IMG/VR virus record: IMGVR_UViG_3300029258_001230
Strand: one strand, 5' to 3'
Source of the DNA: an uncultured virus (IMG/VR IMGVR_UViG_3300029258_001230)
Taxonomy: Duplodnaviria > Heunggongvirae > Uroviricota > Caudoviricetes
Length of the DNA stretch: 64,000 bases
Shown: positions 1 through 63,979 of the stretch, in pieces
How positions within the stretch are numbered: the first letter of the stretch is position 1
Layout of the letters: every line of letters starts with the position of its first letter
The notes under the pieces: model-generated
The model's input: the letters and a program-made list of their open reading frames with translations, nothing else
Told to the model about the DNA's origin: nothing
The model's database searches: none
Program-made: the position numbers and the translations under genes

Positions 1-20
1 TTTGGGTGTTTTGGTGGCTC

Positions 21-113
21 GTGGAGGCGAAGTGGAGGACAAGTGGAGGGCGTTTTTGTTGATTGGCGTGGGTTGTGGGAGCAACGCGGAGGGCAAGTGG
101 AGGGTGAGTGGAG
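21..113 (+). repeat. Two triplets of G(T/C)GGAG direct repeats with 11-bp period (iteron-like)
   Basis: GTGGAG at 21, 32, 43 and GCGGAG/GTGGAG at 86, 97, 108; GC-rich island in an AT-rich genome. Confidence 0.75.
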
Positions 114-201
114 AAAATAAATACCGTAATTTACTTGCGGTTTTGGTTTTAAGTTAGTAGTTTAGTAAAACACACAAACAGAAATTGTAAATACATACAT
201 T

Positions 202-4677: not shown

Positions 4678-4738
4678 TAACGTATGGTAATATGGTTAAG
4701 CGATAGCGACCCGATAGGGTTAACTATATTACGTGTTG
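4678..4738 (+). repeat. attC-like hairpin
   Basis: TAAC...GTAATATGGTTAA...TTAACTATATTAC...GTTG. Confidence 0.8.
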
Positions 4739-4840
4739 TACACTGTATGGCGACTTAACAGAACGAAACTTAAATCGAAGCACAGAAGTAGTATTTATTT
4801 TTTGTGCGGTGGTAAATATTAATTTGAAAAATTAAAACTT

Positions 4841-6203: not shown

Positions 6204-6385
6204 GCAACTTTTAAAATTATGGATGACGAAATAACAATAAACCTAAGAGCCTTAACTGAGCGACAAAGAAATAACCTTGCAAAGGTATTAGACCAAGCCT
6301 TGAATGATATTGAAGATGAAACCAACGAAGTAGCATTAGAAACCCTACAAAAATTTGTAGAGGAATAATTTTTATTGTTGCTAAC
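6200..6385 (+). mobile_element. Minimal gene cassette carrying a 49-aa ORF
   Basis: GTTAGCAAC...GTTGCTAAC (9/9 complementary). Confidence 0.75.
6219..6368 (+). CDS. small acidic cassette protein (not in ORF track)
   Basis: MDDEITINLRALTERQRNNLAKVLDQALNDIEDETNEVALETLQKFVEE. Confidence 0.65.
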   Translation: MDDEITINLRALTERQRNNLAKVLDQALNDIEDETNEVALETLQKFVEE

Positions 6386-6462
6386 ACCGAAATAACCTCC
6401 GTTTTAATGGAGGGTTATGTGGTGTTATGAGCCGTTGCGATAGCTAATGGCGTTTTCTTTTT
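6382..6462 (+). repeat. Conserved attC-like double-hairpin repeat, copy 3
   Basis: TAACACCGAAATAACCTCC...GGAGGGTTATGTGGTGTTA plus GCCGTTGCGATAGCTAATGGC and T-tract. Confidence 0.9.
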
Positions 6463-8476: not shown

Positions 8477-9251
8477 GCCACAGTTTTATTAAAAAAAATA
8501 AAAAATAGAATTATGAAATATATGGGAAGTAAAAATAGGTTTGCAAAAGAATTGCTACCTATAATTTTAAAAGACAGAAAACCTAATCAATGGTATGTTG
8601 AGCCATTTGCAGGAGGTATGAATATTATTGATAAAGTAAATGGTAATAGAATTGCAAATGACAATAACAAGTATTTAATAGCCTTATGGAAAGGAATACA
8701 GACTAATGAAAGCAGACCAACCGAAATAAGCAAAGAATTTTATAGTGATGTAAGAGATTGTTTTAATGGTAAAAACTCTAAATATAATGACTTCACAATA
8801 GGTTGGGTTGGTTTTATGGGTAGTGCAAACGGACGTTTCTTTGAGGGTGGTTATAGCGGAAAGTCAAATACCAAAAACGGAATAGTAAGAGATTATATTG
8901 CAGAAAGTATTCGCAATATAGAAAAGCAAATACCAAACTTAAAAGATATTGATTTTAGATGTAATGATTATAGAGAATTAGAAATACCTAAAAACAGTAT
9001 TATATATTGTGATATACCTTATGAGGGAACTAAACAATACTCGACAAGTAAAGGCTTTAATCATAAGCATTTTTGGGATTGGGTAAGAAGTACTACACTT
9101 AAAGGACATAAAGTGTTTGTAAGCGAATACAAAGCACCGAATGACTTTGAATGTGTTTGGGAAAAACAAGCAAAAAGTAGTTTAAGTGCCAACGGTAAAA
9201 TTGGAGGTAATAAAGTAAGCACAGAGAAACTGTTTGTTTATTGTGGCTAAC
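8473..9251 (+). mobile_element. Gene cassette carrying a Dam-like methyltransferase
   Basis: GTTAGCCAC...GTGGCTAAC (9/9); gene stop lies inside the terminal TAAC. Confidence 0.75.
8513..9250 (+). CDS. D12-class (Dam-like) N6-adenine DNA methyltransferase
   Basis: MKYMGSK, YVEPFAGG (motif I), YCDIPY (DPPY-like motif IV); likely start is ATG at 8513. Confidence 0.9.
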   Translation: MKYMGSKNRFAKELLPIILKDRKPNQWYVEPFAGGMNIIDKVNGNRIANDNNKYLIALWKGIQTNESRPTEISKEFYSDVRDCFNGKNSKYNDFTIGWVGFMGSANGRFFEGGYSGKSNTKNGIVRDYIAESIRNIEKQIPNLKDIDFRCNDYRELEIPKNSIIYCDIPYEGTKQYSTSKGFNHKHFWDWVRSTTLKGHKVFVSEYKAPNDFECVWEKQAKSSLSANGKIGGNKVSTEKLFVYCG

Positions 9252-9328
9252 ACCGAAATAACCATCGTTCGCAGAATGATGAGTTATGGAGTGTTAAAGA
9301 GCGTTCCGAAGGAAATGCGAACTATTTT
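9248..9328 (+). repeat. Conserved attC-like double-hairpin repeat, copy 4
   Basis: TAACACCGAAATAACCATC...GATGAGTTATGGAGTGTTA plus GCGTTCCGAAGGAAATGCG. Confidence 0.9.
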
Positions 9329-9352: not shown

Positions 9353-9892
9353 ATGAACTGGAAAGATTATAAACAAGAAGCAAAAAGAACATGGGCTAAC
9401 TTTAGCGAGATCCATAAGATTGAAAACGGAGATTTAGACAGAAGAATGGCTTTACTTCACTGCGTATTAGGTATTGAAACTGAGATTAACGAGTACAAAA
9501 AAGCTATCATCAATAATGATGAAGTAAATGCAAAAGAAGAGATTGGTGATGCGTATTGGTATTTGGCTAATTACGAATTGAGGTTTGATATACCTATAAT
9601 GAGTAAGTCCGACCTCAAAGGAGGAAGTTTGGATGATTGTGTAGAAACTGTTTTAGATTTGAGTAAAAAAGTTGTTTTCTATAAAAGTGATAAGTTTTGG
9701 GGAGAAGTTGATTTATGTATGGGGTCTATTCTTTATTATTTAGAAGATGTTGTTATGTCCAGAAGATATGATAAAGCAAGTATTTTACAAACTAACATAA
9801 ATAAACTAAAGTCTAGGTTTCCGAATAAATTCACTACTAAAGATGCTGATGAAAGAGATTTAGACAATGAAAGAAAAATACTAGAGCAATGA
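9353..9892 (+). CDS. MazG-like nucleotide pyrophosphohydrolase
   Basis: YKQEAKRT, LGIETEINE, KEEIGDAYWY, NINKLKSRFPNKF. Confidence 0.85.
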   Translation: MNWKDYKQEAKRTWANFSEIHKIENGDLDRRMALLHCVLGIETEINEYKKAIINNDEVNAKEEIGDAYWYLANYELRFDIPIMSKSDLKGGSLDDCVETVLDLSKKVVFYKSDKFWGEVDLCMGSILYYLEDVVMSRRYDKASILQTNINKLKSRFPNKFTTKDADERDLDNERKILEQ

Positions 9893-10725
9893 GATTAATT
9901 TCACAAAGTTTAATCAAGTCATTGAACAAATACATTAATGGTAAGCAATGCGGTTTAAAATTAAAAGCTCAATACGTAGATGGTATTGAGTTTGAACCGT
10001 CTGACGCTATGCGTTTAGGTCAATGGTTTGAATATAAGTGTACGGGTCAGAAAACTAAATTCGGTCATACTCCAGTTCCCGACAGATTAAAACCCAAAAA
10101 GCTAACAAAAGCACAAAAAGAAGCAGGGTTGAAACAAGAAGATATAGTTGGAGAGCTATCAAAGAAGTATCAAGATGCTTTAATTCAGGTGGAAGCTTTC
10201 CATAAAATGCTTAAAGCAGAAAAACTAACTATCATATCCACGGGTACTAGATTGAAGGATGATGAGTTCGGAATAAGTGGAGATGTAGATATTGTAGCTC
10301 AGAGAGAGGGAGACGATAAGCTAATCTTTATTGATACAAAGTATTCAGGATTACTTGAAAATAAATATGATGATTTAGGATGGCACTATGACTCTTTAGA
10401 GTATAAGCATGATATAATGATCCAATCAGTACAATATAAGTTATTAGGTATTCAGAACTATGGTTATGAGCCTGATTTTTACTTCTGGGTATTTTCAAGC
10501 ACAAATCCAAATGCCAGAAAGAGCATAAAAGTAGAGGTCAGCGAGGATCGTTTTAAGACACATATCAAAGATGTTTTTCAAGCAAGAAAGATATTTGAAC
10601 AAAATTTAAAACACGGATTCAAACCGTACCCATCACCAGACGGATGTGCTTCATGTCCTTTGAAGGAGACTTGCGAACATTTTACAGAAGTGCCAATAGT
10701 TCACACAGTGTATTATGGAAATTAA
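9889..10725 (+). CDS. PD-(D/E)XK Cas4/RecB-like exonuclease
   Basis: ISGDVDIV...FIDTK, QSVQY, C-terminal CASCPLKETC. Confidence 0.8.
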   Translation: MRLISQSLIKSLNKYINGKQCGLKLKAQYVDGIEFEPSDAMRLGQWFEYKCTGQKTKFGHTPVPDRLKPKKLTKAQKEAGLKQEDIVGELSKKYQDALIQVEAFHKMLKAEKLTIISTGTRLKDDEFGISGDVDIVAQREGDDKLIFIDTKYSGLLENKYDDLGWHYDSLEYKHDIMIQSVQYKLLGIQNYGYEPDFYFWVFSSTNPNARKSIKVEVSEDRFKTHIKDVFQARKIFEQNLKHGFKPYPSPDGCASCPLKETCEHFTEVPIVHTVYYGN

Positions 10726-10740
10726 AAACACACAAACACA

Positions 10741-11424
10741 ATGAGAGATTTAAAAAAAATCAAAGAAGAAATAAAAGATATGGCTACTATGGATTTAGAT
10801 ACGGCTATGTCTTGTTTTTACGTCCTTATGGATAACGGCAAACCTTACACGGGAATATCTGTCAGGTTCTCTGAATTAGTTGCTTATTGTTGGGGAGGGT
10901 TGGAAATTGGAACTCGGATTATAAGTAATGACGGTAAAAATATAGTTGTTGGGGCTGAATTATTGGATAAGGAAAAGGATTCAAAGTATAGCTTGGAGCT
11001 TACTCGATCGGTGGTTGGAATAAATGGTAGACCAATTTCAGGAGAAAAACTAGTTAATATAAGCACAACGCTTAGTTCTATTGCTTACAGGAATATCGTT
11101 TTTAAAGCGATACCCTCAATGGTTCTAAAGAAAGTAACCGAAGAGATTCAGGAGTTTATCAAGGACAATATTTCAGATTCAACAGCAATGAAAGATTGTA
11201 TCGACTTCTTTGTTTCCAAAAACGTTTCTAAAAACAAGATTGCTTCAAAGTTAGGGTTAGACTCATTAAGTGATATTGATAGTGAAAAAGCTTTTAGACT
11301 TATCGGGATGAAAAACGCAGTCGAAAGTAATGATACTACCGTTCACGAGTTATTTGGAAAGGATAAAGGTGTTTTTGAAACAGATGACAGTTTAGAAATT
11401 CCAGAGTTTAATTACAAAAAATGA
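10741..11424 (+). CDS. putative single-strand annealing/recombination protein
   Basis: Adjacent to the exonuclease; GISVRFSE resembles the GPSIRLAE motif of phage recombination proteins. Confidence 0.5.
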   Translation: MRDLKKIKEEIKDMATMDLDTAMSCFYVLMDNGKPYTGISVRFSELVAYCWGGLEIGTRIISNDGKNIVVGAELLDKEKDSKYSLELTRSVVGINGRPISGEKLVNISTTLSSIAYRNIVFKAIPSMVLKKVTEEIQEFIKDNISDSTAMKDCIDFFVSKNVSKNKIASKLGLDSLSDIDSEKAFRLIGMKNAVESNDTTVHELFGKDKGVFETDDSLEIPEFNYKK

Positions 11425-11523
11425 TATAAACATCACCTTGTTAGCAAATTAGAATGAGTAGAAGTTGTTTTTTAGCTTCTACTTTTCTATTTTTAGAGGA
11501 CACAAACACAAAAAAGTAAAATT

Positions 11524-11859
11524 ATGAGCAAGTATTACAACACTACAAATGCCTACGGAGATTTATTGAAAGACTACGAAGCAAGAGCAATTAGTCAAGA
11601 CGAAGTGGTTATAGGGGTTTTTAGAATCTACAAAAAACCATTATCCCCATCAATGATTTTAGAGTTATCGGGAATGAATTGTCCTCTGACCTCGGTTAGA
11701 AGAAGTATGACTAATCTAACAAGAGAAGGAAAGTTGGAAAAGACAGACACTAAGGTTAATGGTATTTATGATAGACCAGAATATCTATGGAAACTTCTAA
11801 AGAAAAAGGTTGCTAAAAATAAAGGAAAAGAAATTCAAGGGAAATTAGATTTAAACTAG
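11524..11859 (+). CDS. winged-HTH DNA-binding protein
   Basis: LTSVRRSMTNLTREGKLEKT...YLWK. Confidence 0.65.
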   Translation: MSKYYNTTNAYGDLLKDYEARAISQDEVVIGVFRIYKKPLSPSMILELSGMNCPLTSVRRSMTNLTREGKLEKTDTKVNGIYDRPEYLWKLLKKKVAKNKGKEIQGKLDLN

Positions 11860-11863
11860 ACTT

Positions 11864-12082
11864 ATGCGTTTAAGTGATGAACAACTGAATTACCCTAGTA
11901 ACACAGGTTTTGTTTGTTGTGTGGTATTAGAGAAAATGGACTTGGGGTGGATGGAACTTGAGGATGGGTCTAAATGTATGCCTTACATTAAGGGTAGTTC
12001 GGATAGTGATATGTATCGAGTAAATAACTGCCCTTCTTGTGGTAAGTATGTACGTGATGCAGTAATTAAATTACAAAGATAA
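11864..12082 (+). CDS. small zinc-ribbon protein
   Basis: CC...NNCPSCG. Confidence 0.6.
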   Translation: MRLSDEQLNYPSNTGFVCCVVLEKMDLGWMELEDGSKCMPYIKGSSDSDMYRVNNCPSCGKYVRDAVIKLQR

Positions 12083-12103
12083 ATCGAAAAATCATTAAAT
12101 AAA

Positions 12104-12412
12104 ATGGAACAAGAAAAGATTAGATATAGTGACGTAATGGATTTAGGCTTTAAAGAAGAAATCGGCAATGATAGTACCTACTTTAAAAAATACGGTTTTG
12201 ATTACGCTATTATAACAAAGTACTTAACTAAGAAGATTTACCTTGACTGGGCTAAAGAAACGCAACTTTGTGAAATGGTAAGGATTGATAGCCCTAAAAA
12301 CTGCAATATAAAAGCCAAATTGCCAATACGGAACTTGGAGCATTTAAAAGAGGTAGTCAACTTCTTTTCTGATGAAGAGGTAAATGAAGTTGATTATACA
12401 AAGTTTGCTTAA
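12104..12412 (+). CDS. hypothetical protein
   Basis: 102-aa ORF. Confidence 0.7.
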   Translation: MEQEKIRYSDVMDLGFKEEIGNDSTYFKKYGFDYAIITKYLTKKIYLDWAKETQLCEMVRIDSPKNCNIKAKLPIRNLEHLKEVVNFFSDEEVNEVDYTKFA

Positions 12413-12456
12413 TAAAGGTAAAGCATAAGCGTAGTATAGATAGTAAAAATGAAAAT

Positions 12457-12774
12457 ATGCCAAAAATATTTGAGTATCTAGGAATAATCATTAGGTTTTA
12501 TTCCAATGAGCATGATCCTATTCATGTTCACGCCATTTATCAAGATGCAGAAGTCAAAATTTCTTTCTTTTTTAAAGAAGGTCGTCTTTACAGAACCACT
12601 TACAAAGTTGAAAAAGGGAAATTCCCCCCTGCAAAAATGAAAGCACTTAAAAAGTTCGTTTCTATTTACAATTTGAAAATTGTTCACAGATGGAACGAGT
12701 ATTTTATTTTTAAAGTAAGTCCAAAATTTGAAAAAATCACCAAAAAGTTGAGCAATGAAGATAGATACAATTAA
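12457..12774 (+). CDS. DUF4160-family protein (putative toxin)
   Basis: MPKIFEYLGIIIRFYSNEHDPIHVHA...WNEYF. Confidence 0.8.
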   Translation: MPKIFEYLGIIIRFYSNEHDPIHVHAIYQDAEVKISFFFKEGRLYRTTYKVEKGKFPPAKMKALKKFVSIYNLKIVHRWNEYFIFKVSPKFEKITKKLSNEDRYN

Positions 12775-13003
12775 ACACCTAAAAGACCATCAGTTAGAAT
12801 TAGGTTTTAGCGATGGAACGTCAAAGGTTATTGATCTAGGTAACTTCATAAAATCGAGTAACCATCCATTGATAAAGAAGTATGCTGATATTGAACTATT
12901 CAAGCAAGTATATTTAGATGAAACAGGCACTCCTTGTTGGGGGAACAATGAATTTGACATTAGTCCAAAAAGTATAATTAAAGGCGATTTTGATATTACT
13001 TAA
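12755..13003 (+). CDS. DUF2442-family protein (putative antitoxin)
   Basis: LELGFSDGTSKVIDL...FKQVYLDETGTPCWGNNEFDISP; overlaps the DUF4160 gene. Confidence 0.8.
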   Translation: MKIDTIKHLKDHQLELGFSDGTSKVIDLGNFIKSSNHPLIKKYADIELFKQVYLDETGTPCWGNNEFDISPKSIIKGDFDIT

Positions 13004-13126
13004 CGGATTATAATAAATACAGTAGCGATATGGAAGATGAAATAAAACAGATTTGCACAGAATTAAATGATGGACAAATAGCGGTTGTACAAGCAACAGA
13101 AAAGCTATTGGATTTATTTAATGTTA
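13001..13126 (+). repeat. attC-like hairpin with a long coding loop
   Basis: TAAC...AATAAATACAGTAGC...GCTATTGGATTTATT...GTTA. Confidence 0.7.
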
Positions 13127-13206
13127 GTAATTCAAAATGTAAATGGATGAAGATTAACGGAGTTTACAAAAAGGAATGTAAAATAAAATACACTGAAAAA
13201 GAATAA
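13030..13206 (+). CDS. small protein starting inside the attC-like loop (not in ORF track)
   Basis: MEDEIKQICTEL...KLLDLFNVSNSKC...EKE, 58 aa. Confidence 0.55.
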   Translation: MEDEIKQICTELNDGQIAVVQATEKLLDLFNVSNSKCKWMKINGVYKKECKIKYTEKE

Positions 13207-13213
13207 TTATTAC

Positions 13214-13272
13214 TAAAGGACGAGTATATGCGAAGTGCTGACGATAGGAAGCATTGCGTATATACATTGTTG
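13214..13272 (+). repeat. attC-like hairpin with degenerate left core (TAAA)
   Basis: GTATATGCGAAGTGCT...AGCATTGCGTATATAC...GTTG. Confidence 0.7.
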
Positions 13273-14213
13273 TACACTGTATGGCGACTTATTAGCACTA
13301 ACCTTCAATCAAAGCACTAAACAGAAAAACAAAAAGAAAAAAGCGATGGCAAAAATAAATTTAGACAAGTATTACACATCAAAAGAACTTGCAAAGCATT
13401 GTATTGATGTAGTAAATAAATTGGGATTAGAAATAACTGAAACCATTGAGCCAAGTGCAGGAAATGGAAGTTTTAGTTTACAGATACCGAATTGTATTGC
13501 GTATGATTTGGAACCTGAACACGAAAGTATTATTAAACAAGACTTTCTAAAACTTGAATTGCCTTATAAAAGTGGAAGGTTGTTTATTGGAAACCCCCCA
13601 TTTGGAACAAGGAATACATTAAGTGTACGATTTTACAAACAAGCAATTAGAATGGGTGATTATATTGCTTTTATACTACCTGTAAGCCAATATAAAAACA
13701 ACCAACAAATGTATGAGTTTGACTTAATTCATTCGGAAGTATTGCCACTGATTGAATATAGTGGAATTAAACTATTGTGTTGCTTTAATGTATATAAAAG
13801 ACCTGAGAATGGAGTGAATACAAAAGCAATAGATTATAAGCTAAAAGATGTATTTGTTGGCGAATATAGAAGAGGTGGAACTTATAAAAAACCTGAAACT
13901 TTTGATTTTGCTATGAACACCTATGGGGCAAGTATTGGGAAAGAAGTTCTTGAAATAGGGACATTTTGCCAAGAAAATTATGTGATTATTAAAAATGAAA
14001 TGCACCGAGAAAGGATTTTAGAAGTGATGAGAAAAACTGACTGGAAGAATTTATATCCGTTTATTTCTAAACCTAAAATACAGACTTGGAAGATTTATAA
14101 GTATTTAAAAGAACAAATACCTGAATTGAAATAAAGAATTGCGGTGGCTTTTTTTGTTTTTCCTTCACATAACTTTCAAACGAAGAACGAACCTAAGCCA
14201 TATTGTGTACAAC
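13269..14213 (+). mobile_element. Gene cassette carrying an N6-adenine methyltransferase; same ends as 4735-6115
   Basis: GTTGTACACTGTATGGCGACTTA...CTAAGCCATATTGTGTACAAC. Confidence 0.8.
13346..14134 (+). CDS. N6-adenine DNA methyltransferase
   Basis: DKYYTS, IEPSAGNGSF, IGNPPFG; likely start is ATG at 13346. Confidence 0.85.
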   Translation: MAKINLDKYYTSKELAKHCIDVVNKLGLEITETIEPSAGNGSFSLQIPNCIAYDLEPEHESIIKQDFLKLELPYKSGRLFIGNPPFGTRNTLSVRFYKQAIRMGDYIAFILPVSQYKNNQQMYEFDLIHSEVLPLIEYSGIKLLCCFNVYKRPENGVNTKAIDYKLKDVFVGEYRRGGTYKKPETFDFAMNTYGASIGKEVLEIGTFCQENYVIIKNEMHRERILEVMRKTDWKNLYPFISKPKIQTWKIYKYLKEQIPELK

Positions 14214-14294
14214 ACCGTTATAACCTCCGTGCGAAGTCATGGAGGGTTATGTGGTGTTATGAGCCGTTGCGTAGCTAATGGCGTTTTCTTTTTT
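14210..14294 (+). repeat. Conserved attC-like double-hairpin repeat, copy 5
   Basis: CAACACCGTTATAACCTCC...GGAGGGTTATGTGGTGTTA plus GCCGTTGCGTAGCTAATGGC and T-tract. Confidence 0.9.
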
Positions 14295-14310
14295 AAAATA
14301 CATATAGTTA

Positions 14311-14348
14311 AAAAGCCCCAATTACGAGCGTAAGAGGGGCTTTTCTTT
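14311..14348. terminator. probable bidirectional intrinsic terminator
   Basis: AAAAGCCCC...GGGGCTTTTCTTT between convergent transcription units. Confidence 0.6.
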
Positions 14349-14402
14349 GATCTTTCGATCCACACAAACACAATACGAAGAACTCGCATCGCTTCAAATA
14401 TA

Positions 14403-14963
14403 CTAAATTACTGTAAAATAACCTTTCTCTGGAATAGTGATGTTATCAACAATGAACCTGATTTGTTTAAGGTTGAAGTTATCCACTTCAACTGCTCCTT
14501 CTCCGAATGTTTGTCTAGCTTCTTGAATTAAAGCATCTTTAGTCCATCTACGTCCTAAAGCTTTCTTTCTAAAAGTGTCAATTGTATCGAAGTCAATTTT
14601 AGATTCTGATTGATCGGATTTACCTTCTCCTGTAAGGATATTAAGTCTATCGTACACGATTTTAGGAACTTCAAGATGGCTTCCACTATCTTCTACGAAA
14701 TCAACTTTAGATAAGTCGTTTGTTACGTAGTAAATGTGAAGAGGGTTCTTTCTTTCTCTTCCTGACTTTGTTTTAGTAATTACTTTTTCAGCTCTAACGG
14801 CTACTGATTGAGTCATTCCCTCAATTAAAGTATAAAGCTTAACTCCTCCAATTTCTTTTTCTAATTGGTTGATTACTTTTTTAATTGTAGCTGGTTTGTC
14901 ATTTTCATTGACTTTGATTAAAGGATACTTTTCAAGTTCCTTTTCCCATTCTGCATTTGGCAT
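14403..14963 (-). CDS. hypothetical protein, paralog of the C-terminal domain of 15516-17969
   Basis: KYPLI...TKSG...YY...VPKIVYDRLNI shared with 15516-17969. Confidence 0.75.
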   Translation of the reverse strand: MPNAEWEKELEKYPLIKVNENDKPATIKKVINQLEKEIGGVKLYTLIEGMTQSVAVRAEKVITKTKSGRERKNPLHIYYVTNDLSKVDFVEDSGSHLEVPKIVYDRLNILTGEGKSDQSESKIDFDTIDTFRKKALGRRWTKDALIQEARQTFGEGAVEVDNFNLKQIRFIVDNITIPEKGYFTVI

Positions 14964-15012
14964 AATTATATTGTTTATGATTAATAATGGTGCTAATTTA
15001 CAAAAAACAAAG

Positions 15013-15020
15013 TATTTTTG
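15013..15020 (+). promoter_or_regulatory. Bacteroidota -7 promoter element TAnnTTTG
   Basis: TATTTTTG about 30 nt upstream of ATG 15050; similar elements at 20328, 30570, 46192, 46932, 50767, 59294. Confidence 0.6.
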
Positions 15021-15049
15021 TATTGTAAAAGGTAATATATTAGGTGGTT

Positions 15050-15505
15050 ATGTCAAATAAGGTGATTACTCCGAAAACTGATAAAAGCGGATTGTATAAA
15101 CATGGTTACTACCATTCGGAAGGTGGTATTCAAGTTTTCGTTGATGGGGTTAAGGAAATAGAGGTTGAAAAAGACGAGTATAAGATATGCAGAGGGGCTT
15201 ATAATAGTGATAAGATTTATGACTTTAAAGGAAAGACTAACCTAGAGGTGTTAGATGCTTTATTTAAAGACGCTCAATGTACGTTTAAAACGGAGTATGC
15301 AGATAGTGGGGATTTTATACTTTGCCGTCCAGTAGTGTATGATCGAAAAAAACATAACCGAAAAGGAACAGTAAAAGAAATACTTAATCAAATGCAATCA
15401 GAGAAGTCTTGCAGGGTTGAGAATGGAGATGATTCTAAGTCAAAAGGCGGAGAGTTGACTAATAAAGGTTGGTTTAAAGGAATGCTTAGTTTTTTAAATT
15501 GGTAA
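15050..15505 (+). CDS. GxxHxxGG-domain protein with C-terminal FLNW tag
   Basis: GYYHSEGGI...EIEVEKDEY; ends KGGEL...KGWFKGMLSFLNW. Confidence 0.7.
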   Translation: MSNKVITPKTDKSGLYKHGYYHSEGGIQVFVDGVKEIEVEKDEYKICRGAYNSDKIYDFKGKTNLEVLDALFKDAQCTFKTEYADSGDFILCRPVVYDRKKHNRKGTVKEILNQMQSEKSCRVENGDDSKSKGGELTNKGWFKGMLSFLNW

Positions 15506-20351: not shown

Positions 20352-22505
20352 ATGAAGGTAGATATAGGTGATATAGTGAAAGTTGGGATAGGTTCAGATT
20401 TTCACTATGGTTATATAGAAAGTACAGATAGTGGTTTTCCGAATTACTTGCCTAACTATGTTAAAGTTAGTGGTATAGGAGATGCTATTGAAATTGATAA
20501 AGTAGAGAAAGTAAAGGCAGGAGAGGTGATTGAGTTAGATTACACGGAAATAACACCTTTGTCTACTCAATTATCAAGAATAACAGGGGATTCATGGACG
20601 GCTAAAAACTTTTCATCTTTAGGGGGTGATGAGCCTGATTCGGATGAATTGTTTATTCACACTAAAAGCAGGGTTAGATTTAAAACGCCTAGTAAACTGT
20701 GGAATAAAATAGATGGGTATAACTTGTACGTTGAAGATGAATTAATAAAGACGGCTAAAACGAATAAACCAATCGCTTCTGTTAAGGATGGAGAGTTAGA
20801 TTTTTCAATATTGGCGGACGGGATATATATTGATAAAGGAGAGGTTAAGAAAAAATACTTGTCAGGGGAAATACCATTTAACACTTCTGATAAGATTAGA
20901 TCAATAATCGGGGTTTCGCCAAAAGAAGACAGAGCAGAGGTTGAAGCTTTAGCGAGTGATGTTATTAAAGCTACCGTTGAAGAAGATGGTTCTTTGATTA
21001 CTTTTGATTCTATTAGCGATATTGTTGACAATGGTAGAGAATGGTTAGTTGATTTTGATGTTACCGTTAAAAGTGATGAAACAGTAAGTAAGGAAGTTAT
21101 AAGCCTTACTATAAATGATATGCACGAAGTATTGTCTGGAGGTGATTTTGATAGTCCAGAATATTTTGAATTAGGTGGTGAGTTGGATGATTCTAAGTAT
21201 GAGTCGTACAGGGATGATGTGATAAGACACTCTGAATACTTTGAGGCAGGAAATGGGTATAATTCTAGTTTTGATGGAGCTACAAATAAAGACGGGCATA
21301 AAACTAATGGTGAATATATTATAGAAGACAATAATATATTTTGGGTTTATACTGATGGAAAAGGTGAAGAATACAGCTCTAATGAGCAACCAAATTTTAG
21401 AGTAGATTTTGGTTCTTTAGTAGTAAAAGAAAATTATAAAGAAGGCGGTTCTATAAACTCTAAATTCATAGACTATGTATTAAAGTTCTACGGAAAACAA
21501 GGAGATAGTCAAGACAAAAAGAAACTTTTTGGTTCTGGAATAGAAGCTTATGAAGTTGAAGAAGCTGAAAAAGAGTTAAGATCCAAAAATAATTGGGGCG
21601 ATGGAGATTCGCTAGATAGAAAAAGAGCTAGAGATTTAATTTTAGAAAACCGAATTAAAAGACTAGAGGAATTGATTAAGGCTGATGACAAGGATATTAA
21701 AGAGCATTCTAGTATAGTTGGAGGTAAAACACCGAAAGAGATTAAGGAGTTAGCGAAAAAGACTGTTGAAAGCCTTGAATCGGAAAGATTGAATCAAGCG
21801 ATTATGGGACAAGGGGTAGATGCAGTTGCGCAAGAAAAAAAAGGCAAGGATGTGTATGATAACACGTTTTACCATTGGCACAATATATCTTTTGAAGGAG
21901 ATGAAGATGTATATGCTTATCCGACCCCAAAAGGAACAATAGTTTATGGGGAAGATGTTTCAGGAGAAAGGGAAAAACCATTTGGTACAAATTTTTCAAA
22001 AAGTCCTTTCTATTTAGAAACACAGCCTGATGAAGAGTATGACTTTGATTCTTTAGAAGAGTCTAAAAATAAAGCCTTAGAAATTATTGAAGAAAAAGGC
22101 TTAAATGAAAAAGGTTCTAAAAAGGATTTAAAGAAAGCTGATAAATCAAAGTACGACTTATTTATAAACGGGAAAACTTGGCATTACGGGGTTAACATCA
22201 AGGACGGTAAAGTAGATTACGATACTTTTAAAGGAAAAGATTTAGAATTTAAGTCAAGTAAAAAAGGAATTGAAGTATCTAAGTTACCTAAGTCAATAAG
22301 ATCAAAAGTTGAAGATTATTTATCTAAAGACGGAAATTCGGGTGATGATAATAAGGAGGTTTTAGAGGAAATTGAAATTCAACTAGAGGTGTTAACTGAT
22401 TTAAAGAACGATTTAAACCCTAAGTCAAAAGACGATAAAGATGTGTTGGAAGAAATTGAAATCCAACTAGAGGTATTAACTGATTTGAAAAACGATTTAA
22501 AATAA
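20352..22505 (+). CDS. large acidic multidomain protein (putative internal virion protein)
   Basis: 717 aa; FELGGEL and YKEGGSI motifs; C-terminal duplicated helix. Confidence 0.7.
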   Translation: MKVDIGDIVKVGIGSDFHYGYIESTDSGFPNYLPNYVKVSGIGDAIEIDKVEKVKAGEVIELDYTEITPLSTQLSRITGDSWTAKNFSSLGGDEPDSDELFIHTKSRVRFKTPSKLWNKIDGYNLYVEDELIKTAKTNKPIASVKDGELDFSILADGIYIDKGEVKKKYLSGEIPFNTSDKIRSIIGVSPKEDRAEVEALASDVIKATVEEDGSLITFDSISDIVDNGREWLVDFDVTVKSDETVSKEVISLTINDMHEVLSGGDFDSPEYFELGGELDDSKYESYRDDVIRHSEYFEAGNGYNSSFDGATNKDGHKTNGEYIIEDNNIFWVYTDGKGEEYSSNEQPNFRVDFGSLVVKENYKEGGSINSKFIDYVLKFYGKQGDSQDKKKLFGSGIEAYEVEEAEKELRSKNNWGDGDSLDRKRARDLILENRIKRLEELIKADDKDIKEHSSIVGGKTPKEIKELAKKTVESLESERLNQAIMGQGVDAVAQEKKGKDVYDNTFYHWHNISFEGDEDVYAYPTPKGTIVYGEDVSGEREKPFGTNFSKSPFYLETQPDEEYDFDSLEESKNKALEIIEEKGLNEKGSKKDLKKADKSKYDLFINGKTWHYGVNIKDGKVDYDTFKGKDLEFKSSKKGIEVSKLPKSIRSKVEDYLSKDGNSGDDNKEVLEEIEIQLEVLTDLKNDLNPKSKDDKDVLEEIEIQLEVLTDLKNDLK
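22343..22502 (+). repeat. intragenic duplication encoding VLEEIEIQLEVLTDLKNDL twice
   Basis: Two copies visible in protein and DNA, with synonymous differences. Confidence 0.85.
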
Positions 22506-24035: not shown

Positions 24036-26576
24036 ATGGGAAAGAAATTCAGAAATAGCGAAATGACTGTTGTAGGCAAAAGAAGAGATAAGAACGGAAA
24101 CAGAACAATTAGATTAGGTTTTCCTGATGGAAAAGGGTTCAGTATTCAGACAAACGGAAACTTACCAGAAACGCATTCTATTTTTAGTAGAGTTAAAAGA
24201 GTAGACATGTTAACTGGAGAAGAGTTAGATGTAATTGAAAAGGAGGTTATTAGGTATGTAGAAGCTTTTGGAACTAAAAGACAGAAGGATTTAGTAGGAG
24301 TGGAGAAAAAAGCCAAAGGCGGTAAAACTCGTTCAACACACGCTATTAATCAAGACCGTAAAAGACTAAGCCAAGAGCCTTGGGAGCAAGCGTACAAGAA
24401 AAAAAGAAAAGGAGACTATTATGAGCCTGAAAAGAAAGAAGAAGGTGGTTCAATCAAGATGAATAATTTAGATTGGGGTAAAACAACTACTGAAAGAAAT
24501 AGTAATTTAGATTATTACAACTCCCTTGAAACTATAAAGGAAAAAGAGGATTTTAAAAGAAAGCTAAAGTCAAAAAATGAATCAGTTTTAAAAATAGGAG
24601 ATACGGTTAAGTATCCCGATGCTGAATATACAGGAGAGATTATTGAGTTAAAACCATCAACGGCTATTAAGGGAGAGGTAGAAGTAACAGTTTTATATAG
24701 AGATGGCAAGATGGTAAAAGACCTTGGTAGCTCGTTTGTGAAGACTAAAGCTAAAGATATAAGCTCAATAAATCCTAAGAGTTTTACGCTAAATGATATT
24801 ATTAATACAGTTAGTGATGTGGATGTTACAATGATCCGAAAAGGAACTTCTTTAGACAGTGCTGACAAAAGAGATATTTCATGGAGATTAGGAGATGGCT
24901 CTAAAAAGTATAGAGAGTGGTTTTCTAAAGAGTGGACTATTTCTGACTATGCTATAATTGAAGCGTCAAAAGGATCAGAGAATTTATATGCTGACATAGT
25001 TGTTTATTTTAACAATGAAGAGGATGGGGATATTTACCAAGCATATACAGTTAGTCTTTACTCTAAAAATAATGTTAAGGGGTTAAAATCTTTAATTTCC
25101 CACTTTGTTCAAAAAATGGAAAAAGGTGGTAAAACCCGTTCAACACACGCCATTAATCAAGATCGAAGAAGATTAAGTCAAGAGCCTTGGGAACAAGCGT
25201 ACAAGAAAAAAAGAAAAGGAGACTATTATGAGCCTGAAAAGAAAGAAAAAGGTGGTTCTTTGGGTGAGGATAATGGAAGAATATCAAAATCCGAAATCAA
25301 AAAACAAGGATATACAACTACCTATGATGTTTTAGGAGAAGATATTATTGGTAAAGAGGTTACAGTAAGTCATAGAAAAGAAAAAGGAATTGTAGACGGG
25401 TTTAAAGATTTAGGCGATTCTAACTATGAGGTTCTTATTTGGTATCCAGAATTAGGATTTTCGGAAGCGGTTAATACAAAATTTATTGATGTTAGATTTG
25501 TAGAGGAGTTTAAGGATGGCGGTTCTGTTTTTGTTGATTTGTTTGCTAAAGGTGGAGAAGTAAAAATGGTTGTTTTCCAAGTAAAAAAACCGAATGGCGA
25601 TTGGGAAGATAGAAAAGAATGGCAATCTAATGAGACTTATCAAAATGATTTAGAGCAAATGCAAAGAGAATACAAACAAGACCTACCCAATTTTAAAACA
25701 AGAGTTATTGAAAGAAGTTTTACCTTCGCTAAAGGTGGAGAGGTAGAAGGAGAATTAAAAGGCGAGATAATTAAAGAAGTAAACTCAAAGGTTTGGACTT
25801 TACAACTTTATGATGATAATGGCTATCATTCTTCAATTTACGCACCTAAAAAGTCTGACCTAACTCAATATATGAGAGAGCAAGGTATTAAAAAATACGC
25901 TAAAGGTGGAGAGGTAGACAATAGTTACCCTTCAATAGAAGTTGTAAAACACATTAAGTCTTTAGACTTGTCTGGATTGGAATCCATGAAGTCTGAGTTA
26001 GAAAAGGAAATGAGTAAAGGTCTTTTGAAAGGAAGAAAACACGATAGAGAGTTGTCTTTAATAAAAAGAGAAATCCGCAAAAGGAAGGGTGATTTGACTG
26101 ATGTTTTTGAAAGCGGAGGAGAGATAGAGTCTGCTTATGTTGATTACCTAAACGATATTGGTGATTCATACGACTACGAGAGTGATGAATGGATTATTGG
26201 TGGAGAAAATAGGGCTGATGAATATTGGGGCAGATATGGAGAAGCTTTAAGAGATCATGACCCAATAGGTTTTGAGGTTGGTAAAAACGAATTTGAAAGA
26301 GATGTTTTTGCTAAAGGAGGAAGCGCAAAAGGCTTGTCTCAAGAAGAGTTGGAACAAATAGCTAGTGATTTCGCTTATGTAACAGGAGGTGATGAAGAAA
26401 AGGCTATATATAGGCTTGTCGATCCTGATTACACGGATACTCTTCTTCCTAAATACAAAAAGGCTATTGAGGAGTGGGAACAAAAACATGGTGAGAAAGT
26501 TAGTGTATATAATAAGGGCGGTGTCATTAAATCAAAAGGATGGTTTAAGGGTTCATTATCATTCCTAAACTGGTAG
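24036..26576 (+). CDS. modular polyprotein with 11 xxxGG motifs and FLNW tag
   Basis: FAKGGEV twice, YAKGGEV, FESGGEI and others; ends KGWFKGSLSFLNW. Confidence 0.75.
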   Translation: MGKKFRNSEMTVVGKRRDKNGNRTIRLGFPDGKGFSIQTNGNLPETHSIFSRVKRVDMLTGEELDVIEKEVIRYVEAFGTKRQKDLVGVEKKAKGGKTRSTHAINQDRKRLSQEPWEQAYKKKRKGDYYEPEKKEEGGSIKMNNLDWGKTTTERNSNLDYYNSLETIKEKEDFKRKLKSKNESVLKIGDTVKYPDAEYTGEIIELKPSTAIKGEVEVTVLYRDGKMVKDLGSSFVKTKAKDISSINPKSFTLNDIINTVSDVDVTMIRKGTSLDSADKRDISWRLGDGSKKYREWFSKEWTISDYAIIEASKGSENLYADIVVYFNNEEDGDIYQAYTVSLYSKNNVKGLKSLISHFVQKMEKGGKTRSTHAINQDRRRLSQEPWEQAYKKKRKGDYYEPEKKEKGGSLGEDNGRISKSEIKKQGYTTTYDVLGEDIIGKEVTVSHRKEKGIVDGFKDLGDSNYEVLIWYPELGFSEAVNTKFIDVRFVEEFKDGGSVFVDLFAKGGEVKMVVFQVKKPNGDWEDRKEWQSNETYQNDLEQMQREYKQDLPNFKTRVIERSFTFAKGGEVEGELKGEIIKEVNSKVWTLQLYDDNGYHSSIYAPKKSDLTQYMREQGIKKYAKGGEVDNSYPSIEVVKHIKSLDLSGLESMKSELEKEMSKGLLKGRKHDRELSLIKREIRKRKGDLTDVFESGGEIESAYVDYLNDIGDSYDYESDEWIIGGENRADEYWGRYGEALRDHDPIGFEVGKNEFERDVFAKGGSAKGLSQEELEQIASDFAYVTGGDEEKAIYRLVDPDYTDTLLPKYKKAIEEWEQKHGEKVSVYNKGGVIKSKGWFKGSLSFLNW
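24315..25258 (+). repeat. Two copies of a ~137-bp intragenic repeat (24315-24451 and 25122-25258)
   Basis: KGGKTRSTHAINQDRxRLSQEPWEQAYKKKRKGDYYEPEKKExGGS occurs twice. Confidence 0.9.
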
Positions 26577-30604: not shown

Positions 30605-31708
30605 ATGGATAGAGGGTTAACAGAGCAAGATTTAAGGTTTTATTTAGAGAAGGAGCAGAACTACGCTTATACTCCTTCTTCTAATTTGCCTAATTTAAAG
30701 CGGAATAGAATTGCTTTCGATATTTACAACCCTACTTTGTTCACTCAGGAAATACCTCTGTTTTCTAGCCCTTTCGGGTCTAATGAACAACAAGGTATTT
30801 CTTATGGCGACTTACTACTATCTTTTTATTCATCTATTGAAATAAGTGCGAGTGTTGTAGATAAAAAGACAGTTAGGGTTGAGTATTTACACGAAAATGG
30901 AATAACTTACACAACAACACCTCAGACAGTGAATGATATAGATGAATTTATAACTTACTTAGAAGATCAACTTAAAAACAATTTTAATTATATTCAAGTT
31001 GGTACAGAAGACTTTATAGTCTATAAGGAGAAAAATGACACTTATTTTAATTTCAGTCCTTCACCGAATGGTAACCTTATACCTACATATTCATCCAATA
31101 ATTTAATTAACCTTCAAGTTGGAAACCCCGTTAACCAAACTATATTATGGAATACTTTTCAAGTACAGTCATCATCTGGAATACAAATATCTGATTTAAT
31201 AGGCGATTTAACATACGCAGAATTAGTATCCGAATTAAATGAGTCTATAACTCCTTATATGTTTGATTTTATCTCTGTATATGCTGATAATGTTACACAA
31301 GTAAACAAACCGATAAAGTTAAAGATAGGTTCTAGTTCGGGATATAAAACAGTTGATATAAGAAAACCTGCTATTCCTTCTACTGATAGTTCTAATGTAG
31401 TTTTGAATATACCATTAAACTATTGTCCAAACCCTAATTCAGATTTAATATATACCGTTGGGTCAGGTGAAACAGTAAGAATGGTAATAAATTATAAGCA
31501 AGGAGATGTTTATCGTTATGCTAATAAGATTCAGTCAGAAATGAATAAGGGACTGACGTTTAAACAAGCAACTAATAAAACAAGGGTTAGTTTCGATCAG
31601 TCTGATTTAAAGTATATTCAAGGGTTAGATCTTTCAAAATGGAACTTTGACACCGAAGTGCCAGAGTCCCAAATTAAAAAGTTGGTAAAAAGGTATGTTA
31701 AAAGTTGA
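30605..31708 (+). CDS. paralog of the major capsid candidate with a large insertion (second or minor capsid protein)
   Basis: DLTYAELVSEL...PYMFDFISVYADNVTQVNKPIKL aligns with DVTYTEFLESI...PFKVGYMYLESSNTAQPFKQLTV of 34913. Confidence 0.6.
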   Translation: MDRGLTEQDLRFYLEKEQNYAYTPSSNLPNLKRNRIAFDIYNPTLFTQEIPLFSSPFGSNEQQGISYGDLLLSFYSSIEISASVVDKKTVRVEYLHENGITYTTTPQTVNDIDEFITYLEDQLKNNFNYIQVGTEDFIVYKEKNDTYFNFSPSPNGNLIPTYSSNNLINLQVGNPVNQTILWNTFQVQSSSGIQISDLIGDLTYAELVSELNESITPYMFDFISVYADNVTQVNKPIKLKIGSSSGYKTVDIRKPAIPSTDSSNVVLNIPLNYCPNPNSDLIYTVGSGETVRMVINYKQGDVYRYANKIQSEMNKGLTFKQATNKTRVSFDQSDLKYIQGLDLSKWNFDTEVPESQIKKLVKRYVKS

Positions 31709-58434: not shown

Positions 58435-58468
58435 TGTTACAAGGTAGGCTCTTTCGGGGGCTTACCTA

Positions 58469-58595
58469 TAACGGTTACTTGTATGAGTATTAGCCGATTA
58501 GAAATTACAGAAGTATCGAATTGAAAATTAACTTAATAAATAGTAATAGCTTTAAAAACAAGCACTGCAACGGCTATTGCTTATACAAATTGTTG
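58469..58595 (+). repeat. attC-like hairpin
   Basis: TAAC...TTGTATGAGTATTAGCCG...CGGCTATTGCTTATACAA...GTTG. Confidence 0.8.
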
Positions 58596-58612
58596 TGGTG
58601 CGTTATTTAGCG

Positions 58613-58921
58613 ATGGCAAAATTTAGAAAGAAACCTGTGATTATTGAAGCAATTCAATTAAAAGAAACGAACATAAGCGAAGTGCTTAATTTTATGGGGC
58701 AAACTGTAAGATTACCATCTTTTCAAGAGCAAATGAGATTTGAGCAGTATGAAGATAGTGTCATTGAAAACGGTATGGATATATACACTTTAGAAGATGG
58801 TAGAGATGGTAGAGCGAAGCACGTAGCGACTATTGGTGATTGGATTATTAAAGGTGTTAAAGGTGAGTTTTATCCTTGTAAACCTGATATTTTTGAACAG
58901 ACCTATGAGAGCGTTGGCTAA
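58613..58921 (+). CDS. conserved phage protein (RKKPV...GDWII...YPCKPDIF family)
   Basis: Motif widespread in phages; ATG at 58613; stop inside TAAC. Confidence 0.8.
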   Translation: MAKFRKKPVIIEAIQLKETNISEVLNFMGQTVRLPSFQEQMRFEQYEDSVIENGMDIYTLEDGRDGRAKHVATIGDWIIKGVKGEFYPCKPDIFEQTYESVG

Positions 58922-59000
58922 CACCGTTATAACCTCCGTTTTAATGGAGGGTTATGTGGTGTTATGATCCGTTGCGATAGCTAATGGCGTTTTCTTTTTT
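58919..59000 (+). repeat. Conserved attC-like double-hairpin repeat, copy 6
   Basis: Nearly identical to copy 3 (6382). Confidence 0.9.
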
Positions 59001-61511: not shown

Positions 61512-61592
61512 TAACACCGTAATAACAAACGTCCGCAGGATGTTTAGTTATGGGGTGTTGAAGAGCGTTGCGAAGCTAATGCGAATTATTTT
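61512..61592 (+). repeat. Conserved attC-like double-hairpin repeat, copy 7
   Basis: TAACACCGTAATAACAAAC...GTTTAGTTATGGGGTGTTG plus GCGTTGCGAAGCTAATGCG. Confidence 0.9.
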
Positions 61593-63427: not shown

Positions 63428-63856
63428 ATGGAAACAAAAAATTTACGAATAGGAAACTTGGTGGGAATAAAGAAAACCGCCCTACACGCTGACGGCTGCA
63501 ATACTGAAAACACCTTCTTTGAAATAGAGGAACTAAAAAAAGACGTAGTGCAATTTAAAGGCTTTCACGCTGGCGAATATTACAAAGACTTGAAGGGAAT
63601 CAAACTTAATGAAGGGATGCTATCTCTATATGGTTTTAAACGTTCAAGTGAGAAACTAATTTACTTGCCAATACCACAGATAAAATCTGAAATACACTTT
63701 GAGAAACACGCTTACGGGAACGTGATAACCTTACAAAGTAGTGTAGGGATGTTTGTTCCAAATGATATTCAGTACTTCCACGAATTGCAGAATCTATTTT
63801 TTTCGATTACTGGCGAAGAACTTGAATTAGTACACGAACGTAGCACTTGTGGCTAA
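63428..63856 (+). CDS. conserved Bacteroidota-phage protein
   Basis: LRIGNLV...IQYFHELQNLFFSITGEEL; stop inside GGCTAAC. Confidence 0.7.
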   Translation: METKNLRIGNLVGIKKTALHADGCNTENTFFEIEELKKDVVQFKGFHAGEYYKDLKGIKLNEGMLSLYGFKRSSEKLIYLPIPQIKSEIHFEKHAYGNVITLQSSVGMFVPNDIQYFHELQNLFFSITGEELELVHERSTCG

Positions 63857-63979
63857 CGTATAGTGGTATGGTGTCGTAGCGGATTAGAACGCACGAACCT
63901 TTGAATAATAACAGAACTTAATAAATAGAATAAATGATTGACTTAAACGAAAAACCGCTATGCACTATACCACGTGTTA
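63854..63979 (+). repeat. attC-like hairpin
   Basis: TAAC...GTGGTATGGTGTCGTAGCGG...CCGCTATGCACTATACCAC...GTTA. Confidence 0.8.

Follow-up and report, generated by a model that had tools for sequence, protein, structure and literature searches.

Introduction

Two systems described in phages come close to the locus reported here. In the promoter-early stem-loop (PeSL) cassettes of T4-type phages, as far as they are presented in the parts of the reports used here, repeated intergenic hairpin units lie among small accessory genes and flank single small open reading frames (ORFs), and the authors of these reports themselves compare the cassettes with integrons (PMC2839356, PMC4122927). Virulent phages, including Polaribacter phage P12002L, carry clusters of predicted integron attC sites, and the P12002L cluster holds methyltransferases, according to the sections of Qi et al. 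2023 considered here (PMC9892861). The present locus lies in a stretch of 64,000 nucleotides (nt) of an uncultured virus of the Caudoviricetes (IMG/VR record IMGVR_UViG_3300029258_001230), which is referred to, at its full length, as the window. It comprises a 126-nt hairpin element, the "starter", which encloses the start codon of a 58-amino-acid (aa) ORF, and a tail that is joined in frame behind the hairpin.

13001-13126, plus strand: starter hairpin element, 126 nt; it folds, forms a sharp-edged conserved block, shows covariation and matches its covariance model with 139.9 bits.
13030-13206, plus strand: 58-aa ORF; N-domain, residues 1-33 (13030-13128); tail, residues 34-58 (13129-13203); stop codon, 13204-13206.

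The reading preferred here, which is tentative and given a chance slightly short of even, is that the locus represents a single cassette in a system of modular minigenes of aquatic phages, exchanged mainly by short-homology recombination, and that the hairpin acts chiefly on the sense strand. The phages carrying this system probably infect Flavobacteriia. Such a cassette consists of three parts. The first is the starter hairpin, which begins at the upstream stop codon; in it, a leader of 27 nt precedes the start codon and an N-domain of 33 aa, and the leader pairs with codons 25-32. The second is an exchangeable tail joined in frame at the right foot (GTTA...), and the third a terminal motif resembling ...CTAAC that supplies the stop codon and is an inverted repeat of the sequence with which the tail begins. 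Among unrelated phages, reshuffling at the short conserved feet affects starters, tails and entire cassettes, and many starter-tail combinations result.

The likeness to PeSL cassettes includes insertions, deletions and replacements between related phages with junctions in the units, which were also seen here. In contrast to the PeSL units, however, the present unit reaches into the gene, so that the start codon and the conserved N-domain belong to it, and has tails joined to it in frame; it also forms a long-range stem around a loop of 70-80 nt, and the cassette ends are mutually complementary.

Other systems are more distant. In the G segment of phage Mu, the R64 shufflon and the Mycoplasma vsa locus, a recombination site in the coding region joins one N-terminus to alternative C-termini, and a dedicated recombinase switches among silent copies in one genome. 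In contrast to such invertible systems (Gin, Cin, shufflon), one tail per starter per genome was found here, the variation was between phages, and no invertase was found. The window contained no second starter of the close family: the only match above 28 bits was the element itself, a diverged copy at 58468-58597 had no ORF, and no repeat of the tail was seen. The Rickettsia palindromic elements, palindromic repeats of approximately 100-150 nt that are translated in frame within proteins, differ in that they insert inside existing genes and neither supply a start codon nor lie at a cassette boundary.

Modular hairpin-linker cassettes and attC-like sites in virulent phages are already in print. 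In the literature searches, whose scope lay outside bioRxiv supplements, the present architecture was found nowhere apart from the related papers on PeSL cassettes and on phage clusters of attC sites lacking integron-integrases (CALINs). The features not met there were a linker with a start codon and a conserved N-domain, a fixed in-frame junction, tails with their own inverted repeats, and the family of two-part minigenes, more than 80 clusters in all, to which these features give rise.

Results and discussion

Structure and conservation of the starter hairpin

The starter opens with the foot TAAC and a left arm (13001-13026) that is a non-coding leader, and it closes with a right arm (13104-13126) that makes up codons 25-32 and ends in the foot GTTA (13123-13126); the loop contains the ATG (13030) and codons 1-24. 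A sequence-only reading of the window had placed this ATG within a hairpin at 13001-13126, and the sequence was found to be as described: the inverted repeat 13001-13026/13104-13126 was the minimum-energy structure of the element. Bulges and an asymmetric internal loop were seen in the predicted folds. As DNA, the plus strand folded at -9.2 kcal/mol (z -1.59, with 15 of 200 shuffles equally good) and the minus strand at -2.2 kcal/mol (z +1.09). The RNA fold reached -20.8 kcal/mol (z -2.32, 3 of 200 shuffles equally good).

The element was compared between the window contig and 10 further DNA loci with a starter, one from IMG/VR and nine distinct ones from metagenomes (loci are given L numbers where they have to be told apart). 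A pattern scan of genome contigs gave 0 matches, and scans of viral contigs gave two contigs only. In the aligned loci, the conserved block opened at TAAC or TAAT and closed at GTTA, and the flanks on both sides were unrelated. Mean pairwise identity (54 pairs) was 0.79-0.85 within positions -15 to +89 of the ATG versus 0.26-0.34 outside. The other ORFs of the relative loci had no blastp match among the window ORFs except for one endolysin-like protein and one weak match of 25%.

The long-range helix was recovered by RNAalifold with three compensatory pairs. Across the 11 sequences, 94.5% of the cells paired, versus 34-46% when the partners were slid; both sides had changed in three pairs, and the covariation score was higher than those of all 500 shuffles. 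On this comparison with its relatives, the predicted hairpin is more than a chance fold. No Rfam family matched the block, the sole match being a snoRNA at E 0.69, which is noise. A covariance model built from these sequences retrieved nine further full-length, far more diverged copies in the same contigs and the window. These copies were often tandem, 220-380 nt apart, and formed clusters of two or three elements per contig. An ATG in the loop with an ORF crossing the right arm was present in seven of the nine, as well as in an element at 63854.

The 27-nt leader was conserved although it is non-coding; protein predictions that were wrongly extended show it as ...KYSSDM, and those of diverged subfamilies do so too. 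The segment GTTGTACAAGCAAC forms a small internal hairpin and was invariant at synonymous sites in the 10 close sequences, while the diverged member L013 differed there. Judged from these alignments, the starter is under nucleic-acid constraint in addition to protein constraint.

The N-domain and its family

The frame of the 58-aa ORF reads ...LLDLFNVSNS through the right arm and the GTTA at 13123-13126 and stops at 13206, exactly as the sequence-only reading had it. Among ten close sequences, the variable sites were distributed over the three codon positions as 10/4/14, and the ratio of nonsynonymous to synonymous polymorphism (pN/pS) for codons 8-33 was mostly 0.1-0.2. The N-terminal piece is a genuine protein domain under purifying selection, beyond a mere by-product of a site. 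AlphaFold2, run with a 94-sequence alignment, predicted a helix-turn-helix hairpin (alpha-hairpin) for residues 2-34, with a predicted local distance difference test score (pLDDT) of 93-98 over residues 1-30; the tail of the 58-aa protein was modeled as a beta-hairpin with low confidence. The N-domain matched no family in Pfam or PHROGs, a PDB fold search returned nothing at E<1, and a protein atlas returned nothing above chance.

A word-indexed search found 25 homologues of 58-94 aa, in which the first 33 residues were near-invariant (20 invariant columns) and were followed by complete divergence. The claim that the hairpin supplies a start codon and a conserved N-terminus was supported. With an exhaustive profile search, 82 clusters (50% identity) were found at E<=1e-3, all of 32-135 aa. 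The domain began at residue 1 in 87 of the 103 family proteins, and in 96 of the 103 it was followed by an in-frame tail of at least 20 aa (median, 38 aa). The 98 tails of at least 15 aa fell into 73 single-linkage blastp clusters, the largest with 16 members, a grouping in which the shortness of the sequences limits sensitivity. The same N-terminus was thus found, as had been proposed for searching, on different C-termini, with 82 clusters and at least 73 tail types. No longer fused forms were found at E<=0.1, which is weak evidence; lengths of 102-166 aa were outside that search.

It might be supposed that the block acts in cis as nucleic acid (for instance, as an origin, a packaging site or a small RNA) and that its open frame is coincidental. 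The invariant synonymous sites of GTTGTACAAGCAAC in the 10 close sequences (again with L013 differing) and the conservation of the non-coding leader would agree with this. However, the codon-position bias and the low pN/pS indicate coding, 96 of 103 proteins continue for at least 20 aa past the block although the DNA has approximately 33% G+C, the domain is confidently predicted, and Rfam has no matching family, so that this explanation is very improbable.

The tails were of several types. Helical "QQRELL..." tails were found, as were zinc-ribbon-like tails, eight of which had at least two CxxC motifs; a few of these matched Pfam zinc-ribbon families. One tail type (P0012, P0014 and P0015) resembled the C-terminal, toxin-binding part of the TacA antitoxin (PF08681, E 0.0016), with 18.8 bits, which is below the cut-off of 21. 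This TacA-like tail hints at a possible role against toxin-antitoxin systems. By eye, tails opening with "GS" tended to close with "N-x-R", and tails opening with "QQ" closed with "NCG". A role of the proteins in host takeover or against host defence is a guess based on their context.

Such a constant piece on variable small proteins has a precedent. The internal proteins of T-even phages carry a short conserved N-terminal capsid-targeting leader on highly diverse small proteins, which are thought to act against host defence, according to the portion of the source used here (PMC3012670). The likeness lies in a conserved N-terminal piece on otherwise unrelated small proteins; in contrast to the T-even leader, which sends its proteins into the prohead and is then cut off by the prohead protease, the piece found here is a predicted folded hairpin of 33 aa that is tied to a nucleic-acid stem. 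The N-domain might accordingly be pictured as a targeting or assembly handle with the tails as cargo, the hairpin being secondary or incidental. Purifying selection on the N-domain, its confidently predicted fold, its N-terminal position in 87 of 103 proteins and the diversity of the tails, including the zinc-ribbon-like ones and the one sub-threshold TacA match, would all suit this explanation, as does the T-even precedent within the part of PMC3012670 drawn on. It does not account for the conservation of the non-coding leader or for its covariation with codons 25-32. Moreover, diverged hairpins keep the arms but encode unrelated N-termini: the element at 63854 reads its arm in a different frame from the related unit at L011, and protein gp37 of P12002L, described below, matches the family profile over just 18 residues of the right arm. 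An origin of the pattern in the protein alone is therefore considered quite unlikely.

Tails and cassette boundaries

The starters of L005, L006 and L008 were 96-99% identical in DNA, whereas their tails and upstream genes were unrelated, with divergence setting in right after GTTA. Therefore, these swaps were recent and ended at the hairpin feet. The possibility, raised as a refutation of the sequence-only reading, that homologues always share one C-terminus does not agree with these three loci. The junction at the right foot is read in a fixed frame, commonly as ...V-S-G-S.... The modules that follow the starter in the window are listed below.

13123-13131, plus strand: 5' junction of the tail module, GTTAGTAAT; left copy of the inverted repeat of the tail; conservation among homologues ends here.
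13209-13217, plus strand: motif closing the cassette at its 3' end, ATTACTAAA; it forms the inverted repeat with 13123-13131 and is a degenerate version of the family's usual end, ...TTGTGGCTAAC.
13218-13280, plus strand: next module, a stable hairpin unit (hairpin 13219-13272; RNA -29.9 kcal/mol, z -2.57).
13218-14213, plus strand: N6-adenine methyltransferase-like module (gene 13346-14134; phrog_5172 and phrog_799).

The brackets of the tails were sought by an unbiased best-partner search with the 13-mer starting at the GTTA of the right foot. The partner that scored best with this 13-mer was found at the end of the ORF in 10 of 11 loci, closing in TAA(C); the pairs were locus-specific and 8-13 nt long. 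In the window, the best partner of the tail 5' junction was 13209-13216, with a score of 8, ending 12 nt after the first base of the stop codon.

In two contigs of other samples, the unit 13218-13280 stood behind different sequences ending in ...CCAAC| and ...ACAAC|, and the junction is therefore fixed at 13217|13218. The sequence-only reading had drawn its end at 13217, which coincides with this junction; it had also put the stop codon inside a 95-bp unit, which is partly right: the stop belongs to the terminal motif of the cassette itself (13201-13217) and is 11 nt short of the point where the following hairpin unit is joined. The methyltransferase module was bracketed by an 18-nt inverted repeat (13268-13285/14197-14214, 89% complementary). 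Three other runs (X5-X7) covered just this module, at 97-99% identity, without its window neighbours, and contigs of two runs diverged from the window exactly after 14213 (...ACAAC|).

Whole cassettes move as well. A 251-nt cassette, from TAAC to ...GGCTAA and containing starter, tail and stop, was 100% identical in L010 and L011, while the flanks had no similarity; the whole gene, starter plus tail, is thus also a single mobile unit. L008 and L009 were identical over approximately 2.4 kb through the gene and unrelated right after ...TAACG. Concerning the idea that the site gives the start and an incoming cassette the C-terminus, the tails do differ behind the starters, but the L010/L011 cassette shows starter and tail moving together. 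The expectation of combinatorial small proteins was largely right, with the qualification that the N-terminal piece is a selected domain and that mosaics inside the element, considered below, fit homologous exchange.

Comparison with integron attC sites

Integron attC sites fall in a length range that includes 126 nt; their extrahelical bases and unpaired central spacer set the choice of strand, and integron cassettes circularize by a logic that involves the cassette's own complementary ends. The likenesses seen here are imperfect hairpins with AAC/GTT feet, arrays, stop codons inside the ...YAAC (...CTAAC) box, complementary cassette ends and methyltransferase cassettes. Clusters of two or three hairpin elements per contig were present, and a CALIN is recognized by at least two clustered sites. 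As in attC sites, structure was kept across the diverged hairpin copies, in an alignment fitted to the model, while sequence varied; within the close family, however, the sequence itself was 80-85% conserved. The consensus of the attC terminal boxes is quoted as RYYYAAC for R'' and GTTRRRY for R' in the part of PMC9892861 used here. In the window, the left foot ACTTAAC fits RYYYAAC, and the right foot GTTAGTA fits 5 of 7 positions of GTTRRRY. Among the relatives, GCCTAAC (L001) and ATTTAAC (L011) fit, TGCTAAC and TCATAAC do not, GTTAGCC fits 6 of 7 positions, and four loci have TAAT feet.

There are also differences. In canonical integrons, the attC site lies 3' of the cassette ORF, on the strand of that ORF, and the crossover is at G|TT of R', whereas here the hairpin is on the 5' side of the ORF, whose start it encloses. 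The mapped junctions here are at the 5' foot, ...AA|C or ...AAC|, and the ORFs are on the folding strand, that is, reversed; the attC geometry would fit only if the site were read on the opposite strand. In contrast to typical attC sites, the starter sequence is strongly conserved and protein-coding, and no integrase was found in the window or in a 51-kb relative.

P12002L offers a direct point of contact. Its site P12002L_attC1 was predicted by HattCI only and is, in the portion of the report considered, the sole one of six sites without a verified IntI1 junction (PMC9892861). This site lies just behind a methyltransferase gene and opens with the same 15-nt motif as a window unit at 6371. The hairpin model matched P12002L (L014) three times (E 8.6e-5, 1.9e-4 and 0.018), and one of these matches contains the start of a gene.

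30965-31315 of P12002L (L014), minus strand: gp37, hypothetical protein; it starts inside a hairpin-model match that begins right after the methyltransferase gene gp38.

Where it crosses the right arm, the gp37 frame gives ...EKLLNLHVVGSS..., and the tail of gp37 stands between the two copies of a 15-nt inverted repeat with 14 of 15 positions matching. Compared with the family profile, gp37 matched over the 18 residues encoded by the right arm only; therefore, at this depth it is the arms that are conserved and not the protein.

These data bear on the main rival of the preferred reading, namely, that the hairpins are folded-DNA recombination sites, attC-like or otherwise hairpin-dependent, and that they are cut at RYYYAA|C, on the strand that folds (plus), by a recombinase that belongs to the host or has escaped recognition. 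Cassettes would then excise as circles whose joined ends rebuild the site, and insertion behind a starter would make in-frame fusions. The junctions speak for this: they were precise, ...AA|C or ...AAC|, in four independent comparisons, and by eye it is the cassette's own 3' end, not that of the upstream neighbour, that complements the sequence behind the right foot (L003, L005, L006, L008 and L011). The feet ACTTAAC, GCCTAAC and ATTTAAC agree with the R'' consensus and GTTAGCC with 6 of 7 positions of R'; in short intergenic hairpins of the window, the 7-bp foot, the asymmetric internal loop and the bulged purine are retained, and the apical stems covary. The elements stand in arrays, and methyltransferase cassettes occur as in the published phage CALINs, where the homologous P12002L unit is predicted as attC by HattCI, as far as the consulted part of PMC9892861 goes. 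Folded-DNA sites would also better explain the identical L010/L011 cassette in unrelated flanks and the short complementary ends.

However, no tyrosine recombinase, Y1 transposase, invertase or PF00589 protein was found among the 103 + 12 window ORFs or in the 51-kb relative. The lack of a verified IntI1 junction for P12002L_attC1 alone among the six phage sites, in the same portion of PMC9892861, also tells against such sites. The orientation of the ORF and the position of the hairpin are the opposite of those in canonical cassettes, and both feet seem to act as junctions. The starter is highly conserved and coding, unlike a typical attC, and the four-gamete incompatibilities given below point to ordinary recombination inside the element. 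Folded-DNA recombination is consequently regarded as possible but doubtful. A more specific version, that marine Flavobacteriia phages carry an integron-like system for assembling protein parts, in which precise recombination at AAC/GTT feet drops tails in frame behind hairpin start modules, is considered rather unlikely; with it, expression might also come to depend, through this hairpin, on whether the upstream gene is translated. The proposal of an attC-like recombination site stands as to the feet, the imperfect hairpin, the arrays and the complementary ends, but not as to a recombinase, the position of the junctions at the 5' foot or the orientation of the ORF.

Exchange and proposed expression of the cassettes

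In the starter alignment, 41 of 136 informative site pairs failed the four-gamete test, and L013 carried arms of the L010 type around a different interior. These mosaic patterns fit homologous or short-homology exchange. The window contains a PD-(D/E)XK exonuclease gene (9889-10725) that is followed by a 227-aa protein of PHROG 3657 (function unassigned), the pair spanning 9889-11424; the two could be a candidate exonuclease-annealase recombination pair. Homologous or short-homology exchange is favoured here because of the mosaic starters, the phage exonuclease gene and the lack of a recognisable recombinase. The conserved feet and arms would serve as linkers in which recombination takes place, mainly over short homologies, and selection would then act on the products; this is the mechanism that has been proposed for PeSL cassettes (PMC2839356, PMC4122927).

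As to expression, the hairpin would act chiefly on the sense strand, most likely in mRNA. The starter stem contains an invariant G-U pair, and 4 of the 11 sequences carry TAAT feet that pair U-G with GTTA; action on the sense strand is suggested because of these G-U pairs and U-G feet and the better fold of the plus strand. The gene upstream of the starter is the following.

12755-13003, plus strand: DUF2442-like gene upstream of the starter hairpin (PF10387, E 1e-08).

The TAA stop codon of this gene (13001-13003) is identical with the first three bases of the left foot TAAC, and in 7 of 12 loci the stop of the upstream ORF coincided exactly with the TAA of the hairpin foot. The TAAC stop context was not enriched across the window genes (9 of 101, with C making up 12.7% of the bases). 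The stem could tie initiation at the enclosed ATG to ribosomes that terminate at the foot, or to RNA processing. As read from the sequence, Shine-Dalgarno sequences were absent 5' of the gene starts here. In hosts without Shine-Dalgarno sequences, initiation would be expected to stay blocked as long as the leader is held in a stem, and to become possible once the stem is opened by a nuclease or by a ribosome terminating at the foot. The DUF2442-like gene forms a DUF4160/DUF2442 pair (12457-13003; ORF overlap, 20 nt) directly 5' of the starter hairpin.

Several observations weigh against short-homology exchange of a structured sense-strand cassette. A cassette whose identity sets in at its very first base (TAAC), amid unrelated flanks, is not easily accounted for by homologous recombination; nor are complementary cassette ends of 8-13 nt, which are too weak to close large loops unaided. 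In the inverted-repeat control, foreign 13-mers also scored fairly high (mean, 6.8 versus 8.8), and 24% reached a score of at least 8, because all share the GTTAG/CTAAC core. The fold scores of the starter from the single sequence are modest, barely above chance, and the closing helix of L007 and L013 differs from the minimum-energy fold. In an alignment of 20 sequences that included the nine diverged copies, the three closing helices were 95-97.5% paired and 10 of 18 pairs had changed on both sides, but these figures lean towards structure because the alignment was fitted to the covariance model. Finally, PeSL units contain a strong early promoter of the sigma-70 type, and the analogy with them is incomplete because promoter-like hexamers were not above chance: a scan of 12300-14500 for sigma-70-like promoters, which excludes promoters of the Bacteroidota type, gave 9 versus 10.6 expected from shuffles and none in the unit.

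In this family, one conserved nucleic-acid structure marks the cassette boundaries, carries the gene start and fixes the frame across the junction. Through these three jobs of the hairpin, unrelated tails become parts of one protein family. Phage mosaicism is familiar, whereas the building and movement of new small genes are poorly understood, and the locus suggests a concrete, testable route to the rapid invention of small host-interaction proteins. It also links the published attC-like sites of virulent phages to a coding function, and P12002L, with the gp37 start inside such a hairpin, is a culturable model. If the exchange were site-specific, the cassette concept of integrons would extend to in-frame domain assembly. 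If the integron-like system were real, two-domain small proteins would be built combinatorially and traded among unrelated phages, a counterpart of exon shuffling in prokaryotic viruses.

Other elements and genes of the window

Two further members of the hairpin family were found in the window.

63854-63979, plus strand: second 126-nt hairpin-start element; its TAAC overlaps the upstream stop codon; 19-bp closing stem; ATG in the loop at 63934.
58468-58597, plus strand: third, diverged member of the family; intergenic, with no ORF start in the loop; 27.2 bits, E 0.005.

The RNA fold of the element at 63854-63979 had -30.4 kcal/mol (z -3.11), with 0 of 200 shuffles equally good, and the ORF from 63934 crosses the right arm and is still open where the window ends. 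The arms of this element resembled those of the unit downstream of the L011 cassette, in which the arm is read in another frame, as part of a lipoprotein-like signal peptide. A scan of the window for TAAC...GTTA hairpins at -8 kcal/mol or lower gave 22 on the plus versus 12 on the minus strand; no shuffles were run, and because of this, many of the long coding matches may be due to chance.

The window has a G+C content of approximately 33%, and nearly all of its genes are on the plus strand. Phage hallmark genes included those for a holin, an endolysin, an HNH endonuclease, several methyltransferases, a MazG-like enzyme and the PD-(D/E)XK exonuclease, while no protease was recognised among the window proteins. 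The majority of the window ORFs had no known family in Pfam and PHROGs scans. In a phage collection, no DNA or protein match was found for 11500-15500, the 58-aa protein or one intergenic unit; the sole match was that of one large window protein, weak and at its tail end, to Tenacibaculum phages.

Intergenic hairpins of 46-50 nt formed another family (481-530, 2611-2658, 6382-6427, 9248-9296, approximately 14213-14259, 58919-58964 and 61512-61560). In each, the foot is 7 bp long (TAACACC/GGTGTTA), the internal loop is asymmetric and a purine is bulged; the apical stems covaried from copy to copy. These hairpins were followed by a second small hairpin and a T-rich run, and the TAA within GGCTAAC was the stop codon of several upstream genes. 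At 14263-14282, a hairpin with a T-run resembled a terminator. A different type of intergenic unit, a hairpin followed by TTGTTGTACACTGTATGGCGACTTA, occurred in two copies (4690-4790 and 13219-13317) with 81% identity across 59 nt. Large genes of unassigned function contained direct repeats of 67 nt and 146 nt (22351-22501; 24306-25258), and the start of the window (14-115) contained G-rich short tandem repeats.

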